Assembly: GCA_000004695.1 (NCBI GenBank) | Contig: CM000155.2 | Coordinates: forward strand, 2,336,001 to 2,400,000 | Direction: 5' to 3' | Length of the DNA: 64,000 nucleotides | Source of the DNA: Dictyostelium discoideum | Lineage: Eukaryota | In this document: positions 3,986 through 34,300 of the stretch, piece by piece | How positions within the stretch are numbered: position 1 is the first letter of the stretch | How the letters are laid out: every line of letters starts with the position of its first letter | Notes under the pieces: generated by a model | Databases searched by the model: none | What the model saw: only the letters and a program-made list of their open reading frames with translations | Told to the model about the DNA's origin: nothing | Translations under genes and position numbers: made by a program

Positions 3986-4055
<70 letters not shown>

Positions 4056-4625
4056 TTATAGAAAGTACTGAGTGAATTATTGTATTTTTTGAGATGTTTA
4101 GGAAGTTCTATTGCGTGAAGAGGTGAGTTCCATTGTCTGCTAAATTGTAATAGCTTTAGCGAGATTAGTGAGTCTAATTTATTTTGTTCTTCAGGCCGTT
4201 GCTTTGATTTGATTCTTAATGTTTTGTTTATAACCGCTTGTGTCCTGTCCCATGCAGCTCTTTGTGTTTTAATTAGTTCACGTATGACTTGTTGTCTGTG
4301 AATTATTATTTCTTTTTCATCGTGAATGAGTTTATTTCTTTTGTGCCAGATTTTTTCGAATATGATAGCTATTAAATTGGCTACTAGTGCAATTTGTAGA
4401 TGGTTTAAAATCTTCACATTCCAGGTGTGAGTGGTGTGTCCACACTTAGTTAGGGTGTAGTTGAAGATTTCTTGTGTTTTTTTGATGTGGGCTTTGCAGT
4501 TGAAGAATATATGTTCTGAAGTCTCATCTTCCCCACACTGTTGGCATGGCATGTTGTATATTTTTGGTAGTGCTTTCAGTGTGTATCTCCATAATAGATC
4601 TCTACCTTCAGAAAACGACCTTGAT
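3986..4625 (-). mobile_element. 5'-truncated non-LTR retrotransposon 3' fragment (TRE5-like by position): ORF2 C-terminus with CCHC-type zinc motif plus a ~66-nt poly(A) tail
   Basis: The minus-strand frame is open from about 4624 to the stop at 4052-4054. It reads ...RDLLWRYTLKALPKIYNMPCQQCGEDETSEHIFFNCKAH..., the typical C-terminal Cys/His motif of LINE ORF2. The stop codon is followed directly by poly(A) on the minus strand, seen as plus-strand T run 3986-4051. The 5' junction lies ~30-50 bp upstream of the tRNA-Ser at 4655, head-to-head with it. That matches the known TRE5 target site about 48 bp upstream of tRNA genes. Confidence 0.6.
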
Positions 4626-4654
4626 TACACTTCATTACATAATCAAACATCAAA

Positions 4655-4736
4655 GACATCGTAGCAAAGTGGTCTAATGCGTCTGACTAGAAATCAGATC
4701 CCTTCGGGGGCGCAGGTTCGAACCCTGCCGATGTCG
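4655..4736 (+). tRNA. tRNA-Ser (anticodon AGA), type II with long variable arm
   Basis: The sequence is GACATCG-TA-GCA..TGC, with anticodon stem TCTGA / loop CTAGAAA / stem TCAGA. Positions 34-36 are AGA. The long variable arm is TCCCTTCGGGGGCGC, the T arm is GCAGG-TTCGAAC-CCTGC, the acceptor 3' strand is CGATGTC and the discriminator is G. There is no intron. Confidence 0.85.
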
Positions 4737-4764
4737 ATTGGTTTTGGATGTTCCAACGAAGTTC

Positions 4765-5654
4765 GGGTTTTAAAATACTAATCATAGTCCAACAGTTTTT
4801 CAAAATATAAACGATAACCATATTTTTTTTAAACTTTCAAGAGAATAATCATCATGTCCACATCACACCTCAACCCTCAACGATATGTGCAGACACTGGG
4901 GTGTATTCAGAGTCAAATTTTACCAAAACCATCCAAAGATAAATGAACTTCCAGACTGTATAAGAAACGACAATGACGAACCACTAAAACTGAAAGAAAT
5001 TTACGAACTCATGATCAAAGACAGACACCCAACACCAAGAAGAACAGAATGGCAGAAGTTATGGGCGGTGAGATACAACACAGCAATACCCAAAGTATTC
5101 ATAAACATCAACATCATTTCTCACCAAAAAGGTAGAAACACCCTCTTCAGATTCTTCTCAAGATCACTTCCAGGTATCAACCACGAAAGAGACACCAGAT
5201 GCAAGATCTGTGGCCACCTATTCAGAGACCCTTATTCTCACCTCTTCACTCTATGCCAAGATATCCTAGATATTGAAAAAACCATCATATCAACAGTTAA
5301 CAAATTATCATTCATCAAAATCCACAGATGGTCAATGGATACCTTAGACATATCAAAATACAACAGAACTGAGAGAATCTTCCCCAATCTCATAGGAATA
5401 ATAGCACACCAATTATGGAAGATAATCTGTCACAAATTGTTCAACACTGATGAAAGCAAACCAGAGCCAAAATTCGAACAAAAGGTCATAGAAACAGAAT
5501 TACTAAATCTCATCGAAACTGAAAAATTCATCACACTAAAGAAAATCAAACACGACGAAGCAATACTAAAAAACACCAATCAAGATCTTCACAAATACAA
5601 ATTCAACAAAGCCTGGCAAACCCCAGCAGCTCCGAACCCTCTTCCAATTTAAGT

Positions 5655-5700
<46 letters not shown>

Positions 5701-5850
5701 GTTTAAAAAATTTAATACAATTGAATAATAAAAATAAAATCGTTTAACAAACACCGCCGAAAAGACACAAGGACATTCCTTGAAGGTCTGATCACAGGTA
5801 AAAAAAAAAAAAAAAAATGTCCACATTGGTACTTGGACATTTTAATGTAA
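4765..5850 (-). pseudogene. Disrupted and truncated paralog of the 7104..7613 / 10747..11244 small-protein family, split by a TRE3-type insertion
   Basis: Minus strand 5850..5827 encodes MSKYQCGH. After the retroelement, minus strand 4863..4765 continues DDYSLESLKK(Y)GYRLYFEKLLDYD with one frameshift. The rejoined sequence matches the paralog N-termini MSKYKCPHDYYSLESLKKYGYRVYY and MLKYKCEHDDFSLESLKEYGYRLYF. The copy ends about 30 bp from the tRNA-Ser 3' end, so most of the gene is missing. Confidence 0.55.
4864..5817 (+). mobile_element. 5'-truncated TRE3-type non-LTR retrotransposon (ORF2 C-terminus, internal A30, ~110-bp 3' module, terminal A18) flanked by a 10-bp target-site duplication
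   Basis: The frame reads ...TLFRFFSRSLPGINHERDTRCKICGHLFRDPYSHLFTLCQD..., the Zn-knuckle C-terminus of a LINE ORF2. It is homologous to the element at 29240-30600. The stop is at 5652. An A30 run at 5661-5690 is followed by 5691-5799 of unique sequence and then an A18 run at 5800-5817. The direct repeat ATGTCCACAT at 4854-4863 and 5817-5826 brackets the element. The insertion point is ~120 bp downstream of tRNA-Ser(AGA) on the same strand, which is the classic TRE3 target position. Confidence 0.65.
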
Positions 5851-6050
5851 ATTATAAATTAGAATAGGTTATTGTGTGAACAAAAAAAATAATAAAAAAT
5901 GTTTTTTTTAAAATTAATAATTAATAATTTTAAAAGAAAAAACAAAAATAAATAAATAATAAAACTTTTTTTTTGGTTGTAATATTTTTATGAACCAACA
6001 CTCTCACCCACAACTGAAATTATATTTTTAAAACTGTTGCACCACTCTCC
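5851..6050 (-). promoter_or_regulatory. Conserved non-coding upstream element, copy 1 of 3 (5' flank of the disrupted small-gene paralog)
   Basis: Copy 1 is near-identical to 7620-7860 and ~85% identical to 11250-11480. The shared core is aattagaataggttattgtgtgaa...aatgtttttt...attaataa..agaaaaaacaaaaataaat...gtgaacc.acactctcacccacaactgaaattatattttt. Each copy lies immediately 5' of a family member on the minus strand. Confidence 0.45.
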
Positions 6051-6189
6051 AAGTGTTTTTATTTTTTTTTTTTTTTTTAAAAGCTATTTTGTGATTATTT
6101 TATATAATCTTAATATCTAATGTAATAAACTGAGCAACAAAATATGCTACCGGTTTTATGATACCCCACCAAAATACTTGTTATATTAT

Positions 6190-6830
6190 GTAATTGAAGT
6201 GGAAAATGTTATTGCTTGTTGTGATCTGATTTCTTTTCCTTTGTTGTTAATCTTGCTGTCGCTGCCTCTTTATCTTTTTTAGATCTTTCTTCTTTGGGGG
6301 CATATCCTTTTAATATCATATCTAAAATTGGTGGAGTATTACCTTCTTCAATTGTCATCAGTTCTATCAATTGTTTTTGACCCAGTGAATGCTAAACAAC
6401 ATATATATTATTACTAACACTGCTTGTTATTGGAATTGATTCGATTGAAATTATTGCAACTATACAATAATCACCTGCTAATAAATTATCAAAGATAAGG
6501 TTGCCATCAGAATCTGTTGTTGTTTGAATTAAATTGATATTGATCTGTTTGAATTGTTGATGTTTAACCATTTCCACTGTTGGTTAAAGTAATTTCATAG
6601 AATGGTGTAACTGGGAAACATGGTTTAACAATACCTTCAACACTCGGTGAATCATCAGTACGTTTACCAGTATTGGGATGATCGAACCAAACACTATCGT
6701 TTACATTGAAAGTGGAATAAGATCGAGATTTGCATTTGTGGTTGATCGAGTAAATCGAATGCGTATTTACCATTTCATCTATGACAAGTCTGTGGTTGAT
6801 GTTCAAAATTTAAAGTTATTTTTATTTATT
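6190..6830 (-). pseudogene. CnaB-type (carboxypeptidase-regulatory-like, colossin-like) repeat protein fragment with a frameshift
   Basis: Minus ORFs 6564..6806 and 6392..6577 overlap in different frames. Together they give ...VKHQQFKQININLIQTTTDSDGNLIFDNLLAGDYCIVAI..., which matches the CnaB / prealbumin-like motif TDxDGxYxFxNLxxGxYxV. A C-terminal tail ...ILDMILKGYAPKEERSKKDKEAATARLTTKEKKSDHNKQ* ends near 6190. There is no intact long ORF. Confidence 0.45.
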
Positions 6831-6997
6831 TTAATTTTATTTTATTTTATTTTATTCATTAAATAACTCATTCTCTTTTTAATTCTTACATATTTCACTT
6901 TGTGAGTTTGTGTTTGAAAAAAAAAAATTATAAAAAAAAAAAAGTTGCAACTTTTTTTAATATAATTATTATTTTATTTTTTTTTTATTATTTTTTT

Positions 6998-7040
<43 letters not shown>

Positions 7041-7103
7041 TTACAAATAACCTCAATGACAATGTTAAAAAAAAAATGGATTAAAATATGGAAAAGTTAA
7101 ACA

Positions 7104-7613
7104 CTAACGAGTGCAGTTATCTGGTAAATGGTCAGCATCATAATCACATTTTGTTCCCTCTGGAAGATCACATAATCTTACTGGCTTTCCATTAAGAATT
7201 CCAACTTTGAAATTAATTAACACAAGTTTGTTTTGCATATTGATTGGGTCTACTTTTATTTCTTTTGCATCAAAAGTTTTGTATATTCCATCGATTGGGT
7301 CCTTTCTTCTTTCTTTTAATTCGAAAAAAATTTCATAAAAAATTAGGTCACTTTCTTTTGTTTGTTTAGCATATTCAAAGATTCTAGCATCTTCAAAATA
7401 TCTTTGTGTTGAAGTTAAAAATTGCTCCATTACTATTTTATAAATCTCTTTCATTTTTGTTTTACATTCTTCGTTGCAATAACCATTAAGCATTTTTGGA
7501 AAAAGGTTAGGGTTAACCAATTCATCATAATACACACGATAACCATATTTTTTTAAACTTTCAAGAGAATAATAATCATGTGGACATTTGTACTTGGACA
7601 TTATAATGGACAT
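7104..7613 (-). CDS. Small-protein family member (169 aa), function unknown; its C-terminus ends ...CDYDADHLPDNCTR
   Basis: The ORF is intact and ~70% identical at the amino-acid level to 10747..11244. It has a conserved upstream element and an A-rich start context. No domain is recognised. Confidence 0.7.
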   Translation of the reverse strand: MSIIMSKYKCPHDYYSLESLKKYGYRVYYDELVNPNLFPKMLNGYCNEECKTKMKEIYKIVMEQFLTSTQRYFEDARIFEYAKQTKESDLIFYEIFFELKERRKDPIDGIYKTFDAKEIKVDPINMQNKLVLINFKVGILNGKPVRLCDLPEGTKCDYDADHLPDNCTR

Positions 7614-7619
7614 ACCAGT

Positions 7620-7860
7620 AAAATTGAAATAAAATAAAATGTAATACTTTGTAAATTAAAAATTAGAATAGGTTATTGTGTGAATAAAAAAAATAATAAA
7701 AAAAATGTTTTTTCAAATTATTAATAAAAGAAAAAACAAAAATAAATGGATAATAAAACTTTTTTGCTTGTAATATTTTGTGAACCCACACTCTCACCCA
7801 CAACTGAAATTATATTTTTAACACAAAATTTCCAATATCAACACTGTTGTACAACCACTT
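7620..7860 (-). promoter_or_regulatory. Conserved non-coding upstream element, copy 2
   Basis: See 5851-6050. It lies directly 5' of the 7104..7613 CDS. Confidence 0.45.
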
Positions 7861-8264
7861 ACAAATTGTTTTTACTTTTTTTTACAAATTGTATTGAGCT
7901 CCAAAAATAGAATACTAGAAAAAAAAAACTAATTTATAGAAAATGAAAAATAAAGAAAGAAAATCATTCATTCATTCATTCCAACAGACTGATTAAAACA
8001 AAAACAACAACAACAACAACAAATAAATAAAATAATGAAAAAGGTCAGAGTCAACCAACTCTTCATAAAAAGTATAACTAAATTTTTGGCTTTTTTCTAT
8101 GTTATTTATTGATTTACCAATATATAGAAGTGGAAATGGAATATTTGGAGGGGAACCTGTATATGTATTTGGTTTTTGTGAGAAAATTAAATAAACACCT
8201 GGAAATGCACATTCTTTTGGAGGTTCTCCATCATCTAAAAAAGGAACACATATCCATATAAAGA

Positions 8265-8777
8265 ATGGGAAAAGGTGAATTGGAACTTGCAGGATTTATC
8301 CTTTCTGAAGCATTTGATGAGAAAGCTGAAAAAGAAAAAGTTGAAAAGGAAAAAGCTCTAAAAGAGAAAACTGAAAAAGAAAAAGCTGAAAAAGAGAAAG
8401 CTGAAAAAGAGAAAGTTGAAAAAGAGAAAGCTGAAAAAGAGAAAGCTGCCAAGGAAAAAGCTGCAAAGGAAAAAGCTGAAAGAGAGAAATCAAAGAGTGC
8501 TGTTTCACCAGCTACCACCAATCAAAATTCAAATAAAGGTAATGTAGAAAAGGGTGTAGCAATTGGAGTTTTGGCAGGTGGTGCTGTTACTGGTGTTGCT
8601 GTCGGAGGTGCTTATCTTGCCGATAAATATATTGCTAGTAAAGCCGCTGGAGCCGCTGTTAATGTTATTGAACTAACACCAATTCCAAATGCTGCAAACA
8701 CTGCAAACAATGCAGCAGCTGTTAGTCAAGGTTCGCACCGTTGGCAACCACTACCATATTATTTGTTTAATATTTAA
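8265..8777 (+). CDS. Possible low-complexity protein: (EKEKA)n repeat region plus a Gly/Ala-rich hydrophobic C-terminal segment (GVLAGGAVTGVAVGGAYLADKY)
   Basis: This is a 170-aa ORF with an in-frame stop just upstream. The repeat is a 15-bp unit gaaaaagagaaagct x ~10. Minus-strand ORFs overlap it, so the coding strand is not secure. Confidence 0.3.
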   Translation: MGKGELELAGFILSEAFDEKAEKEKVEKEKALKEKTEKEKAEKEKAEKEKVEKEKAEKEKAAKEKAAKEKAEREKSKSAVSPATTNQNSNKGNVEKGVAIGVLAGGAVTGVAVGGAYLADKYIASKAAGAAVNVIELTPIPNAANTANNAAAVSQGSHRWQPLPYYLFNI

Positions 8778-9389
8778 TTGGTGATCACTTAGTTTTATAA
8801 AAAATTTTAGAGTGAGAATTAAATAAAATTTTTTTTAATTCTTTAATTAGAGTAATAATAATTTAATTTTTTATTTTTTTTTTATTTAATTGTTAGAGAA
8901 TTATATTATGCAATTGTAGTCAAACATTTCTATTCCTTTTGACTGAGAGTATTTTTGGGTGCAAGAATAGGATCATCCAAAAGGACGAAATAAATATGTT
9001 AAACCTGACATTGAATATTTTATAGTATCACCTCCTTGAATTTTATTTTTTTCATGACTGAATTCATTCTTGTTGCTTGTTGTTGACGGTTGTTAGTTGT
9101 TGGTTGTTGATTGTTTTTGTTGGTTGTTGGTTGCTGTGTTGTTGGTTGTTGTTTGTTTACCTTTATTATTTTTTATTGCTTGTTTTGTATTAATTGAATA
9201 ACTGGTGGGTAAATATTCGATGATATTGTTGAAGATGAAAGAGTCATAGTGGGTACATTTTGTTGTTGTGATCTGAGTTGTTTTTTAATTTTTAGATATA
9301 TTATCTTTCTTTTTCTTTGTTGGTGTTGTTGCTACAAGGATAAGTCCTGCAAGTTCCAATTCACCTTTTCCCCATTCTTTAATTTTTGT

Positions 9390-9990
9390 CCAGTAGTTCC
9401 TGTTGTTAATCTCGCCGCCTTTATTTTTTTTAGATATACCTTTCTTCTTTGAAGCATATCCTTTAATATCATATCTAAAATTGGTGGAATATTACCTTCT
9501 TCAATTTATTCTAAATATTTTACCAATTTTGAATGAATCTAACCAAGCACTATCCTCAACTGTGAGTAATGGAAATAAACCAAGATTGGCGTTTATAATT
9601 GTTTCATCGAAAACAATATGATCCTGATACTTGATCTTTTAATGCATATTTACCATTTTCATTTGTGACAAAGGTGTAATTAATGTTCCATTTGTTGATG
9701 ATGTGATAATAACTTGAACCCCATCTGATTCTTCTTTACCACTGTTATTCTTATTGATCTAAAATATTGAGCAATATCGAGTGTTGATACGAAACCTGGA
9801 TTGCCATCAGTTCTATGAATAGATTGTGATCCAGTGGGTGCTAATCAATATTCATTATCAGCAAAGAAATTATCTGCACTGCTTGTTACTAGAATTGATC
9901 GATTAGAGTTTGCAACTATACAATCACCTGCTAACAAATTATCAAAGATAGGGTTGCCATCAGAATCTGGTGTTGTTTAAATTAAATTAC
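9390..9990 (-). pseudogene. Second, rearranged copy of CnaB/colossin-like gene fragments
   Basis: Segments 9421-9500, 9781-9850 and 9885-9985 match 6275-6350, 6340-6400 and 6455-6535. An extra CnaB-like unit (...VTNENGKYALKDQVSGSYCF...) is inserted at about 9500-9780. The frames are broken. Confidence 0.4.
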
Positions 9991-10107
9991 CATTTGAGTA
10001 TTGTGGGTCATGATTCTATGATTTCAAACTACGTTCTAAATTTAATGAACATTAATGAAAATTCTTCTTTTGAATTTTTTGAATCTTTATCTTTATCTTT
10101 ATCTTTA

Positions 10108-10247
<140 letters not shown>

Positions 10248-10746
10248 TCATTTTTTCATATTTCTTTAATTTTTTATTTCATTTTTACGATCGTGGAACA
10301 AAATATAATGGTTCGAGCAAAAATTGAAAAAAAAAAAAAAAATTGGAAAAATTGGAAAAAAAAAAAAAAAAAAAAAAAAAAATTGGCGCTAAATGAAAGT
10401 AAATTGTTATTTATTCTCAAAACAATCTAATAACCTTTTTATAAATAGTTTTTTTATTGTTTTGGTTAAATTAATAGTTTTTAATATTTAAAAAAAAAAA
10501 AAAAAATAAAAAAATAAACAAAAAATAAAAAAAAGAAATCACACTATTTTTTTTTTAAATCAAAAATAAATTAAAAAATAAAATTAAAAAAAAAAAAAAG
10601 AGGCAAGGCTGATGGTTGAATTGTTGTTATAAAAAAAATAGATAAAAAACATTGATATTTATTTATTAAATTTGGATATTTGTGAAAAAAAAATAAGGAT
10701 TGAGAATGATACAAAAAAAAACCTTTTTTTACCTAAAGTTGAAACA

Positions 10747-24816: not shown

Positions 24817-28286
<3,470 letters not shown>

Positions 28287-28646
28287 TTATTTTTTTTTTT
28301 TGTTGTTTTAATATACAAATTTATTTTTTATTCAAATTTTATTTTTATTTATTTGTTGATTTTTTTTTTTTTTTTTTTTATGTATTTAATTTTTATAAAT
28401 TGTACCCAAATAAAAATAATTAGTTATATGTAAGAGAAAGCGTGGTGTGTAAAAAAAAAAAAAAACATAAAAAATAATTTTTTAAAGTTTTATTTTTTTT
28501 TTTTTTTTTTTCGAAAAAATATTTTTAAAATTTATTTTTTTTTTATTTTTATTTTTTTTATTTTTGAAACGCTTTTGGAAGGAGAAAAAAAAAAAAAAAA
28601 AAAAAGGTCAAAAGATATTAATTATTTTTAAAAAAATTATTTTAAT

Positions 28647-28681
<35 letters not shown>

Positions 28682-29115
28682 AATAAAATAAAAATAAAAA
28701 TAAAATTAATTAATAAATAAAAAATAAAAATAAAAAAAAACTGCATTTTTAATCAAGTTAATATCCTAATCGTGTGTTTTGGAAAAAAAAAAAACCCCTT
28801 TATTTCTTTATTAATTCCTTTACCCCATAACTAAGGTTTGGTATTTTATATTTTTTTTTTTTTTTTTTTTTGGATCAATTCTTAAACAAACTTTAAAATT
28901 TTTTTATTTTTTTTATTTTTAGTAGTTGGATATTTTCCCCTAAAGATTTTAACTATCTTACCAAAATTGTTTATTTAATTTAGAGGAGTTGAAATATGTC
29001 TTTTAAAGATTTAAGTGTTTTTTTTAGGAATTGATCCTGTGTTTTTTGTAAAAAAATAATTATTTTAAATTTTTTTCAATTTTTTTTATGCAATTCATCA
29101 TGAGAAATCATCAGA

Positions 29116-29187
29116 TCCTCTTTGGTGTAGTCGGTAACACTCTAGTCTCTCACACTGGTACCCCGGGTTCGATTCCCGGAAGGGGAG
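29116..29187 (+). tRNA. tRNA-Glu (anticodon CTC)
   Basis: The sequence is TCCTCTT-TG-GTGT-AGTCGGTA-ACAC-T-CTAGT-CTCTCAC-ACTGG-TACC-CCGGG-TTCGATT-CCCGG-AAGGGGA-G. Positions 34-36 are CTC. The TTTTTT terminator is at 29190-29196. Confidence 0.85.
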
Positions 29188-29217
29188 GTCTTTTTTATCC
29201 GGTCACCATTAGATCAA

Positions 29218-29229
29218 GGGTTCAATTCC
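29218..29229 (+). promoter_or_regulatory. Ex-B box downstream of tRNA-Glu
   Basis: GGGTTCAATTCC (B-box consensus GGTTCGAATCC) lies about 30 nt 3' of the tRNA end. Confidence 0.45.
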
Positions 29230-29239
29230 ATATAAAATC

Positions 29240-30693
29240 AAGTCTTACCAACTATCAAAGATCATCCTTAGTACTATGGAAAACCACTGACTCAACAATC
29301 AAAACCAAAACCAACATCCTCAAAGCATTCGCACTCTCTAAATTAACCTACTATTCATATGTAGAGAACTTTAAGGAAGAGGAATTAAACCAAATCAATA
29401 AATTAGTCGAATGGTTTTTATCGGCACCAAACAACAAAAATGCTAGTGGATTTCAAGTTATTAATTTAATGAGAACCAAAAGAGCAAGATACCCACTAAA
29501 AGTAGGGGGCTGGAACATTTGGAATATAGAATTGAGACAACTGGCGCAGAAACTTTGGATCATAAACCAGTTCATCCTAGCACTAGAAACCAAACAAACA
29601 AACTCATCTCATCACAAAAGCTGGGAATATCAGATCCAAAAAAACAAATTCACATCCAGATACCTAAAAGAAAACTTAGACGAATGGAACAAAATAAGAA
29701 TAAAAAAAGCAATCTTCAACAATAATCTCACATCCATAAAAAACGAAAATGGACAACCACTTTCACTGGCAGAATGGTATACCACAATTCAAGACCAAAA
29801 TCCAACCATCCCTAAAACGGAATTCCAATCATCTCTAAACTTAAGAGGCTACAGCTATAATCAACTCTTCAACAACATACTGAAGATAAAAGACCCTAAA
29901 ACAAGAGACACAATGTTTAGATTCCATGCCAGATGCCTTCCAATAAACTACCTTCACAACAAACAATGCCCACTCTGCAAAGAAGATATGAGCAAAGACC
30001 CATACGGTCACCTGTTCTTCTCATGCAAGAAAACAAAACAATTCATAAAAATAAATAAACTCAAAAATTTCATCTATATTACCACAGGCAAAGGTAAAAA
30101 CTGGCACCATACAAGAATTAGGCAAAATAACAATTTCATTAATAGAATAACTCCAAAATTATCACCGACAGCCAAAAAAGATCAAGAAGTGAATGCAGAT
30201 TACGCCAACCACAGATTCCACAAAGAATACTTTGAATGGAACTATAAAGCAATAGACTATGATCTAACCAGATCATTCGCATATAGAAACCTAATGGCCC
30301 TTATCCTCCACAACATTTGGATTTGGATTTGCAATCAAATATACAGTGAAGATCCTTTAACAGATGAATCACTATCATACAGCTCCCTTCTAAAGAAATG
30401 GCACAAATTGGCCACTCTAGAATACATCAAAAAAGCAAAAGATCTGAAAAACTTATCAGCAAAAGACCATAATAACTTCAAAGATCCTAAGATCCTTCTC
30501 ACTTCAACGATCAAGCTAAGAAAAACAACAGCTAATTACTATTGTATTCCAGAATCATCTCTCCCAAATATTATATCTTTTGATCAATTCATATGATTAA
30601 AATAACCCTTCAGCTTAAATGATAAGCCTTTAAATAAATATTAAATAAAACTCGTATTAACACAGATGGACATATATCAATCTTGTTAATCCA

Positions 30694-30725
<32 letters not shown>
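29240..30725 (+). mobile_element. 5'-truncated TRE3-type non-LTR retrotransposon fragment (~1.4 kb of ORF2 C-terminal region, 3' UTR, A29 tail) inserted downstream of tRNA-Glu
   Basis: The 502-aa track ORF starting at 29088 spuriously reads through the tRNA. The real homology is the RT C-terminal region plus ...TMFRFHARCLPINYLHNKQCPLCKEDMSKDPYGHLFFSCKK..., which is homologous to the 4864-5817 element. The stop is at 30596, followed by a ~100-bp 3' UTR and then A29 at 30697-30725. The 5' boundary is approximate. Confidence 0.6.
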
Positions 30726-30960
30726 TTACTCAATTGACTTCATTTCAAAATTGTAAGATTGATTGATTCAATTGTTTAGAGACTGTCAAAAGAGTAAAAT
30801 CCCTCATACTTTACATAGTAAATGGAAACTGGCCACTTTAGATATAAAAAATGCAAAAAATTCAAAAGCAATTCTCTCAAAAGATCCAAACAATTTCCTT
30901 AAACAAATAGTTAAAATAAGAAAATTAATAATAGTTAATTTATTGTTTTCCTAGAATTAG
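30726..30960 (+). mobile_element. Second, shorter TRE3-like 3' fragment stacked directly behind the first (different subfamily)
   Basis: The ORF at 30763..30954 reads ...KWKLATLDIKNAKNSKAILSKDPNNFLKQIVKIRK, which aligns to the C-terminal end KKWHKLATLEYIKKAKDLKNLSAKDHNNFKDPKILLTSTIKLRK of the preceding element. Its 3' sequence differs. Its end is unclear; a (TA)14 run lies at 31049-31078. Confidence 0.4.
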
Positions 30961-31041
30961 TGCTTCCAAATATAGTCCCTTCGACCAATTCATCTAATAT
31001 TAAAACTATTAATTATTGTTTAAACACTGAGTAATCAATAT

Positions 31042-31081
<40 letters not shown>

Positions 31082-31391
31082 AATTGGAAAGCTCGATTAA
31101 ATAAAAACCACAAATTATTAATAAAGCCATTTATGGTAAACAATATTTAATGCAAAAAAAAAAAATTGGAAAATGGGAATTAAAATAAAAAAAAAATAAA
31201 AAAATATTTACTCGTTTTTTTTTTTTCGTTTTTTTTTGAATTAATTTTTTTTTAATTTTTTTTTTTTTTATTATTTTTATTTTTATTTTATTTTTTATTT
31301 TTTTTTACTTTTTTTTATTTTTATTTTTATTTTTATTTTTCTTTACTTTTAGGAAAAAAAAAACCCATATATATTTTCATACAAAAAAAAA

Positions 31392-34300
31392 ATGGTAAAA
31401 CCAAATAATGTAAAAATAAAAAATAAAGGAAATTTAAAGAAATCAAATGAATCACAAAATGATTATATGAAAGGTAAAAAATTGGAAACAAAATCCTATC
31501 AAAAAGCATTATTATCAAAAAATAGTAACAACAACAATGATGGAGCACAAGCAAAACGTTTGAAAAAGAAAGAAGAATTTAAAAAGAAATTAGAGAAACG
31601 TCAAAACACCATTGTAATTAAAGATAAATTAAAAGAACCATCAACATTTTTAAAAGAGGATCAATCATTTTTCGATCAAAATATATTCAATGATCAAGAT
31701 GATTATAAACATCAACAAATGAATCGTATTAATATTAATGAAAATTTTGAAACCAATTTATTCGGTGATATGATGAATGAATTTGATGGTGATTTAAATG
31801 AAGATTTAGATCTATTAGACTACAATGACGAAGTAATTGATAATTCAAACTTTGATAATAATGGTGACCAATTCAATAGTGAAGATGAAGAATTTTATGA
31901 TGATGAAAAACAAGCTAAAAAATCAAATAAAAATAAAAATGCAGATGCAGATAATAAAAAATCAAAAAAATCAAATAAAAAAGAAGAAATTGAAAGTAGT
32001 GAAAAGTTTGAATCATTTCCAATGGATGAAAATAATGAACAAGAGGAGGAAACAACTAGTAAAAAGAAAAAGAAGACTGGTGGTTTCCAATCGATGGATT
32101 TAACAAAGAATTTATTGAAAGCAATTTTAAAGAAGGGTTTTAATGTACCAACACCAATTCAACGTAAATCAATTCCAATGATTTTGGATGGTCATGATAT
32201 TGTTGGTATGGCAAGAACTGGTTCTGGTAAAACTGGTGCATTTGTAATTCCAATGATTCAAAAGTTGGGTGACCATTCAACAACCGTTGGTGTTAGAGCA
32301 GTTATTCTTTCACCAACTCGTGAGTTGGCAATTCAAACATTCAAAGTTGTTAAAGACTTTTCACAAGGCACTCAATTACGTACCATTTTAATCGTTGGTG
32401 GTGATAGTATGGAAGATCAATTCACAGATTTGGCTCGTAATCCTGATATTATCATTGCCACACCAGGTCGTTTAATGCATCATCTCTTAGAGACTGGTAT
32501 GTCATTATCAAAGGTACAATACATTGTTTTCGATGAAGCTGATCGTTTATTTGAAATGGGTTTCAATGAACAACTCACAGAAATTCTATCAAAACTTAGT
32601 GAAAATCGTCAAACACTTTTATTCTCTGCAACTTTACCATCACTATTGGTAGATTTCGTTAGAGCTGGTTTAAATAATCCAAAATTGATAAATTTAGATA
32701 CAGATACTAAAATTAGTGAAAACCTTTCATTATCTTTCTTTACTTTACGTCATGAAGAAAAATTAGGTGTTTTATTATTCCTCTTAAAAGATATAATTTA
32801 TAAAAAACCACAATTACCAACAACAGAAACAACAACAACAACAACAACAAATAATGAATCAAATCAACAACAACAAAAGAAATCATCAACAATTATATTT
32901 GTATCAACAAAATATCATGTCGAATTTATTCATATTTTATTAGAACGTGCTGGTATTGCATCGACTTATATTCATGGTTATTTGGATCCAGTTGCAAGAA
33001 AGATTAATTTAGCAAAGTTTCGTTCACATCAAGTTGGTGTTATGGTTGTAACAGATTTAGCAGCACGTGGTATTGATATTCCATTATTGGATAATGTTAT
33101 CAATTTCGATTTTCCACCAAAAGAAAAGATTTTCATTCATAGGGTTGGTCGTGTTGCTAGAGCTGGAAGATCAGGTATTGCCTATTCATTGGTATCACCT
33201 GATGAGGTTCCCTATATGATTGATTTACATCTTTATTTGGGTAGAAAGTTTTTAAATAAATTCCAATATGAAGGTCAAACAATCAATGATCCAAAATACT
33301 CTTTCTATGGTACAATTCCACAAACAATCATTGATCGTGAAACTGAATTTGTAAATGTTCAACGTAAAGAATGTATAGAGTTACTTAGTCTCACCAAAAC
33401 AATTCACAATGCTCACAAGAAATATTTATCAACTCGTCCTGGTGCCTCTCATGAATCAAATAGACGTGCCAAGCTAATGGATAAATCAAAATATCATCCA
33501 ATGTTAAGTGATCATTTGAATTCAAACGATCAAATTAGAAATGATTTCATTCAATCTTTGAAATCATTTAGACCACCACAAACCGTTTTGGAATTGGATG
33601 CTAGAAAAAATAATGTTCAAGTTTCAATCATGAAAGATAAAAGAAAAGTTCATACAAACGTTATCGAATCTCAACAAAAGAAATTATATCTTCAACAATC
33701 TGAAACAAATTTAGGTCCTGAAAATGAAGAATTTGATTATTCAAAATTAGATACAAGAAAAAGATTATTACAATTAACTGAAAATATTACTGAAGAAATG
33801 TTAAGAAGTAATAAATCAAATGATAATAATGATAATAATAAAGATATTAAAATGAATGAAAATGATGATGAAAATGATGATGATGATGAAGAAGGTGAAA
33901 ATGATGATGATGAAGAAGAGGAAAATGAAAAAGATGAGGATGATGAAGAAGATGAAAATAAAAATAAATTTAATATTAAAATTGAATCATCAGATAAAAA
34001 TGATAATAATAAAAAGAAATTAAAATCAAGATCATCATCAAGAGATCCAAATTTCTTTATTTCAGCAACACCAGAAAATTTAATTCAAGAGAGAGCAATG
34101 TCAATTTCAAATAGATTCACTAAAGATGATGAAGTTAATTTAGTAGCCGATACTGATAGAAAACAAAAGAAATCAATGGTTTGGGATAAGAGAAAAGGTA
34201 AATTCGTTAGTAGTCAAGCCGATGCTGATAGAAAGAATTCAAAGAAATTGGTTCGTAATGAAGCTGGTAAATTGGTTGAAGCTAAAAAGAGTCATAAAGG

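Follow-up and report, generated by a model that had tools for sequence, protein, structure and literature searches.

Evidence for an old and a recent TRE3-type insertion stacked behind one tRNA-Glu gene of Dictyostelium discoideum

Transfer RNA (tRNA) gene-targeted retroelements (TREs) target the same tRNA gene sequentially, forming TRE-TRE tandems (PMC5391098; PMC5006619 Table S2 note). Among them, the TRE3 family (TRE3-A, -B, -C and -D, with TRE3-A being the element also called Tdd-3) is marked by a poly(A) end, 5' truncation, co-orientation with the tRNA gene and adjacency to an external B box (ex-B box), all of which recur at the locus described here (PMC5911963, PMC5006619). TRE3 copies share the orientation of a tRNA gene and lie ~40-150 bp downstream of it, and their second open reading frame (ORF2) is of the type that encodes an endonuclease, a reverse transcriptase (RT) and a C-terminal Cys/His motif. 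We analyzed a 64,000-nt stretch of Dictyostelium discoideum DNA (GCA_000004695.1, contig CM000155.2, positions 2,336,001 to 2,400,000; hereafter the window), in which two TRE3-type fragments, F1 and F2, follow one another downstream of a single tRNA-Glu(CTC) gene. We read these, with a probability of about 90%, as two independent insertions on the same strand behind one tRNA gene, an old one (F2) and then a recent one (F1) that lies nearer the tRNA. F1 fits the TRE3 position (59-70 nt past the tRNA, + strand) and keeps only the post-RT part of ORF2. The window as a whole is AT-rich (GC 16-36%), and its proteins are 95-99% identical to those of D. discoideum.

The targeting landmark, the tRNA-Glu(CTC) gene, occupies 29116-29187 on the + strand (ARAGORN; Rfam RF00005, 56.3 bits, E=1.2e-10), and the ex-B box, GGTTCAATTCC, lies at 29219-29229 (+), starting 32 nt past the last tRNA base and agreeing with the B-box consensus GGTTCGANTCC expected a few tens of bp downstream of a tRNA. 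The pattern GGTTCRANTCC has two matches in the 64 kb, compared with 0.11 expected, and the other match is the internal B box of the same tRNA gene, GGTTCGATTCC (29166-29176, +). ARAGORN, Rfam and the B-box pattern search all agree with the original prediction, made from the DNA letters of the window, that a tRNA-Glu(CTC) gene and an ex-B box are present. A T6 run directly 3' of the tRNA (29191-29196, +; read from the sequence) is probably the RNA polymerase III terminator.

F1 (29258-30725, +), delimited by its amino acid and DNA identity to other copies, is a young, 5'-truncated non-long-terminal-repeat (non-LTR) element of 1.47 kb. It consists of the last 445 codons of ORF2 (29259-30593, +, with 99% amino acid identity, and a stop at 30594-30596), a 3' untranslated region (UTR) of 102 nt (30597-30698, +) and an A27 tail (30699-30725, +). 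Translated, it shows 99% identity to RT-domain proteins of D. discoideum, including DDB_G0285835, and 421 of 424 residues are identical to residues 837-1260 of P0142, a 1260-aa ORF2 protein with apurinic/apyrimidinic endonuclease (APE) and RT regions; in P0142, RVT_1 (the RT domain) matches at residues 551-760 (68.7 bits) and Exo_endo_phos at residues 36-280 (18 bits, under the Pfam cut-off of 24.5 bits). F1 begins at about residue 816 of 1260, so that it represents the C-terminal third of ORF2 and is without ORF1, the endonuclease and the RT domain. Pfam searches of F1 and F2 gave one match only, a sub-threshold zf-RVT (E=0.17) in F1 at CPLCKEDMSKDPYGHLFFSC. That an ORF2 C-terminal fragment lies behind the tRNA had been predicted, and the 99% identity to residues 837-1260 bears this out, with two adjustments: the tail had been given as A29 and is A27 by count, and the fragment had been placed directly after the ex-B box, while DNA homology to another copy starts only at 29258.

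F2 (30726-31165, +) is a decayed TRE3-type 3' fragment with frameshifts, stops, an internal deletion, a (TA)16 repeat and an A12 end. Its 5'-most remnant, block a (30726-30755, +; ~aa 1084-1095 of 1260), surrounds the peptide KINKLKNFIY. Block b (30756-31165, +), recognized by BLASTP, tblastn and an 8-sequence alignment, carries the ORF2 C-terminus, the 3' UTR and the tail: decayed coding sequence at 30808-30924 and, after a frameshift, at 30941-30994 with a stop at 30995-30997 (all +), the (TA)16 microsatellite within the UTR at 31047-31078 (+), and the A12 tail at 31154-31165 (+). The 63-aa ORF of F2 matches the F1 C-terminus with 49% identity over 43 aa (BLASTP E=3e-6; tblastn E=1.4e-6), as anticipated by the original prediction of a diverged copy, and past the frameshift F2 reaches the true ORF2 C-terminus (YCFPRISASKYSPFDQFI vs YCIPESSLPNIISFDQFI, 30941-30994, tblastn E=0.004), an end that is included in the 8-sequence C-terminus alignment. 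The predicted F2 end at 31080 proved to be only the end of the microsatellite, and F2 runs on to its A12 tail. A composite F2 peptide had no matches in a database of 5.8 billion proteins, and a full HMMER search with the 63-aa ORF returned only a spurious coiled-coil match to a kinesin-like protein, so that these searches yielded no relative of F2 closer than the F1 family.

On the sequences compared, the order of insertion is settled by orthologous loci, with F2 the older and F1 the recent element. The interval between the tRNA-Glu gene and a DDX54-type helicase gene was compared in five other assemblies (L002-L005 and L007), which were reached via helicase homologues and a downstream single-exon ORF and aligned by blastn with low-complexity filtering, an unfiltered run having been swamped by AT-rich matches. 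Both F1 and F2 are present in the D. discoideum assembly GCA_054883475.1 (L005; 99.7% identity over 17.5 kb). F1 is absent and F2 present in a divergent isolate labelled D. discoideum (L002, GCA_054859355.1; ~92% identity) and in D. cf. discoideum (L003; identity ~86% in the region upstream of the tRNA and ~92% within the helicase gene), and F1 is also absent from D. citrinum (L004; ~80% and ~86% in these two regions) and D. firmibasis (L007; helicase protein 85% identical). The absence of F1 from L002, L003 and L004 follows from alignments that stop at window position ~29234-29246 and resume at 31001-31182; for L002, window 26000-29234 aligns to 6010-9348 and window 31001-33000 to 9583-11627. 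The tRNA-Glu gene is kept at the orthologous loci of L002, L003, L004 and L007, and a B-box-like motif lies 28-33 nt past the tRNA at this locus in 4 other genomes, a recurrence for which the second B-box-like motif behind tRNA-Glu fits a conserved external B box.

The copies of F2 were mapped segment-wise by tblastn and blastn, as global and MAFFT alignments are unreliable here because the three F2 copies carry mutually exclusive deletions. L002 9362-9548 encodes the ORF2-like peptides NNKCTNRITPIILPNMKEDQ and KSYFEWGYKWVNYGL (residues ~475-541 in P0001 numbering), L003 9564-9768 covers residues ~524-600, and the F2 of the window keeps the 30-nt block a and then everything from ~aa 556 to the end (both again in P0001 numbering). 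Block a is ~90% identical to L002 9376-9404, where the counterpart continues into a 44-aa tblastn match to a TRE3-type ORF2 (P0009 177-219, E=4.7e-7), and block b is 92% identical to L003 9695-9800 and 85% identical to L002 9570-9810. The end of the 3' UTR, the poly(A) and the flank TTGG..GGGAATTAAAAT are common to the window, L002 and L003. Because L002 and L003 hold F2 with the same 3' junction but are without F1, F2 must be the older of the two, and these F1-empty, F2-filled alleles uphold the earlier claim of two independent TRE3-type integrations behind one tRNA. No TRE3 remnant was found in the D. citrinum and D. firmibasis spacers, where relaxed tblastn gave only noise (all E >= 0.03).

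Several further features of these loci are recorded here as observations in their own right. The L002 allele has unrelated sequence at the place where F2 of the window carries the (TA)16 microsatellite. The L002 helicase protein is 95% identical to that of the window, and L002 is about as distant from the window as D. cf. discoideum; its ~92% identity across genes and spacers (window 26000-33000) suggests deep divergence, or a cryptic species, under the D. discoideum name. In D. citrinum, the spacer from the ex-B box to the helicase promoter (L004 9440-9795) consists of ~350 bp of unrelated AT-rich sequence that has no detectable TRE3 homology and ends in an A21 run, roughly at the position of the F2 poly(A); it could be an older remnant that is no longer recognizable, or nothing.

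The recent age of the F1 insertion agrees with its 99-100% identity to copies behind other tRNA genes: homology begins at 29258 and DNA identity is 100% over 587 nt to a copy in L006, behind another tRNA, and 99.2% over 955 nt to a copy in L001, behind tRNA-Leu(TAA). F1 is an insertion polymorphism that could serve as a strain marker, and as such shows that its TRE3 family was still active once the sampled lineages of D. discoideum had diverged.

The positions of the two insertions relative to the tRNA are also closely similar. The flank shared with the empty alleles ends at ~29246, which is 59 nt past the tRNA and 17 nt past the ex-B box, F1 homology starts 70 nt past the tRNA, and both F1 and F2 lie on the + strand like tRNA-Glu. 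In L002, the first detectable codons of the old element start 60-62 nt past the tRNA, and together with the flank end at 59 nt this argues that F1 entered at the 5' boundary of F2, within about 15 nt. The upstream boundaries of both insertions are 17-30 nt past the ex-B motif; copies of the F1 family elsewhere start ~55 nt (L001) and ~109 nt (L006) past a tRNA. The 11 nt at the F1 5' junction, ACCAACTATCA (29247-29257, +), have no counterpart in the empty allele or in TRE3 and may be filler nucleotides; looking for their origin, no informative second copy was found within the window.

Four points weigh against our reading of the locus. Relative to the empty allele of L002, 15 nt (GTAAAGATTATTTTA) are gone and 11 unexplained nt are added at the F1 5' junction, which therefore does not carry the textbook signature; with L002 ~8% diverged from the window and so an imperfect proxy for the pre-insertion allele, the loss and gain may reflect either a target-site deletion with filler or a pre-insertion allele that differed from L002. 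Target-site duplications (TSDs), a search for which around each fragment had been proposed with the original prediction, were not found above chance around F1 or F2, the longest words shared between flanks being 5-6 nt, a length reached by most shuffles. Targeting through TFIIIC and the ex-B box is taken from the literature, and at this locus only the 17-30 nt spacing of the two upstream boundaries from the motif speaks for it. Finally, F1 and F2 are assigned to TRE3 by where they lie, by their orientation and structure, and by homology to unnamed APE-RT ORF2 proteins of D. discoideum, and not by named TRE3-A to -D references.

These data also bear on other accounts of the stack. F2 directly adjoins F1 and is collinear with its final ~95 codons and its UTR, as it would be if it were a local, internal or tandem, duplication of the F1 3' end, yet this account is already refuted by the presence of F2 at the orthologous loci of L002 and L003, which are without F1, and we give it practically no credence. 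The divergence between the fragments speaks against it as well. Over 181 aligned coding positions the identity of F1 to F2 is only ~77%, and 53 of 234 alignment columns are gaps, whereas F1 is 99-100% identical to its other copies. The 3' UTRs of F1 and F2 differ, as predicted, to the point of barely aligning, and F2 ends in an A-tail and a flank junction of its own. The outcome that the original prediction named as contrary to it, an internal duplication in which the 3' UTR is identical, is thus not what is found. Scarcely more credible is a single composite insertion of F1 and F2, produced by 3' transduction from a read-through transcript or by a template switch. A similar stack of a young and an old element does exist at another tRNA (L001), so that donor loci of the kind needed are available, but the fragment behind the L001 copy is a different one (only 77% identical to F2 over 102 nt), the internal A27 marks the end of the F1 transcript, and F2 was already in place, with the same 3' junction, in the lineages of L002 and L003 that are without F1. 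A more serious, though still unlikely, alternative is that F1 and F2 come from a single TRE3 subfamily and that F2 differs only through age and decay. F2 is clearly a pseudogene, with its frameshifts, stops, deletion and microsatellite, the searches brought up no relative closer than the F1 family, and the bases before the two tails are alike (TTAATCC.. and TTAATGC). Against this, F2 is ~8% different from its L003 orthologue and ~23%, with many indels, from F1, and its age is limited by its absence from D. citrinum and D. firmibasis. F2 also carries FLKQI.K.RK, like other TRE3-type lineages (P0006 and the L001 elements), at the place where F1 has LLTSTIKLRK. Because the F2-F1 divergence exceeds the ~8% between F2 and L003, and because of this motif, it is likely, if unproven, that F1 and F2 derive from different source lineages or subfamilies. 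The cluster members are all called 'hypothetical protein', with no TRE3 subfamily label among their names. The F1 family is presumably abundant and young, as TRE3-A is described to be.

The open frame of F1 raises one more alternative, namely that it is part of a genuine host gene, such as one made from a domesticated C-terminal domain of ORF2. A 502-aa ORF (29088-30596, +; from the ORF list) runs through the tRNA and ex-B box into the F1 ORF2 frame, so that the frame is open over 1.5 kb, and from its second ATG it is annotated as a 498-aa gene in GCA_054883475.1 (L005 1662-3158, equal to window 29100-30596). TRE3 homology begins only at codon 58, however, and the first 57 codons translate the tRNA, the terminator, the ex-B box and flank, because of which the ORF is, judged by its translation, an artefact, as had been predicted. 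The remainder shares 99% identity with dozens of TRE3 copies in dispersed places, so that youth and not selection accounts for the open frame, and one conspecific isolate as well as three related species are empty at this locus; a host gene here is therefore highly improbable. Neither F1 nor F2 can encode a functional protein, and the 498/502-aa 'hypothetical protein' call, made in at least one public assembly, should become the annotation of a retrotransposon remnant plus a tRNA.

For the two sequential insertions, the comparison of loci gives a parsimonious history. An element of a diverged TRE3 lineage (F2) inserted once, before the split of D. discoideum and D. cf. discoideum; it originally comprised about the last 175 codons of ORF2 plus the UTR, and it later decayed, with internal deletions that differ from one lineage to the next. 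A copy of a family that is active today (F1) arrived much later, on the branch leading to the sequenced strain. It inserted at the same distance from the tRNA, and its entry at the 5' edge of F2 displaced F2 by 1.5 kb downstream. As to mechanism, the endonuclease nick site would be set by the complex of polymerase III factors that occupies the B box or the ex-B box, the poly(A) RNA would be reverse-transcribed from the nick (target-primed reverse transcription), and early termination of reverse transcription would leave a 5'-truncated dead copy. Because the distance would be measured from the tRNA and not from local sequence, a later insertion would come to lie between the tRNA and the earlier copy. 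These mechanistic steps borrow from established knowledge of TRE and L1-like elements; what the locus itself displays is a pair of 5'-truncated ORF2 fragments that share one orientation and each end in poly(A), together with the relative age of the two and their common distance from the tRNA and ex-B box.

We advance only tentatively, as a possibility with the odds against it, the larger proposal that joins these elements: that isolates labelled D. discoideum are naturally polymorphic for the presence or absence of F1, the upstream junction of which lies within about 15 nt of that of an insertion predating the species split, and that the conserved ex-B box sets the distance of TRE3 integration with near-nucleotide reproducibility, regardless of the local sequence, in a process that may involve a small target deletion and filler and not a TSD. 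The start of the helicase gene (DDX54/DBP10-type) was moved about 1.5 kb away by F1, and if the proposal is true, comparing the filled with the empty alleles would directly test whether a TRE3 insertion alters expression of the tRNA or of this adjacent gene.

Other tRNA genes show further elements of this kind. In GCA_054883475.1, the same stacking is found at a tRNA-Leu(TAA) (L001 7872-9270), with an ex-B box, then an F1-family copy at 8010-8965 (99.2% identical to F1), and directly after it a different, older and short TRE3 C-terminal fragment (...FCIPE.ALPNLISFNQFI and a stop); a third TRE3-type element, 66% identical, lies on the minus strand at 5460-6823. In the same assembly (L006 6900-6970), a 25-nt direct repeat, AATTATTAAAGCTCATCAATAATAA, occurs twice, 10 nt apart, between an ex-B-like motif and a TRE3 copy. 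Within the window, the tRNA-Ser(AGA) gene at 4655-4736 (+) has retroelement remnants on both sides (4052-5652). Downstream of it, the + strand ORF at 4885-5652 resembles a TRE3-type ORF2 (39% identity over 102 aa, E=1e-16), at a level that marks it as a TRE3-like lineage of greater distance. Upstream, a - strand ORF (4052-4552) has a CxxC...HxxxxC motif at its start (weak match, E=0.004), a pattern as would be expected for a head-to-head TRE5-like fragment. Near the tRNA-Ser(GCT) gene at 11716-11798, two paralogous ORFs of ~165-169 aa at 7104-7613 and 10747-11244 (both -; MSKYKCPHDYYSLESLKKYGYR... and MLKYKCEHDDFSLESLKEYGYR...), 3.6 kb apart, are probably a local gene duplication.

Set beside the known systems, the stacked F1 and F2 are an ordinary case of a phenomenon that is already known and that is correctly described as stacking; the locus offers a clean, datable case of sequential targeting of a tRNA gene by TRE3 and matters little beyond annotation. 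The same position-specific, polymerase III machinery-guided insertion into safe havens of a compact genome is practiced by TRE5 and DGLT-A of Dictyostelium and by Ty3 and Ty1 of yeast (PMC5911963, PMC5006619), but these elements insert upstream of the tRNA, TRE5 in the opposite orientation, whereas F1 and F2 are downstream and co-oriented. Skipper-2 uses the same integration window downstream of Dictyostelium tRNA genes (PMC5006619) but is an LTR element of the chromovirus type, whereas F1 and F2 end in poly(A), carry the C-terminus of an L1-like ORF2 and have neither an LTR nor an integrase. Compared with TRE3 itself, nothing essential differs in F1 and F2, in which no clean TSD is visible. 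The agreement is closest with the TRE-TRE tandems, in which, as here, the younger element lies next to the tRNA and the older one is displaced distally without nesting (PMC5391098, PMC5006619); the newer insertion may here have cost the older element ~15 nt at its 5' edge, so that the two elements behind this tRNA-Glu gene would have inserted 'without integrating into each other' only to within ~15 nt.

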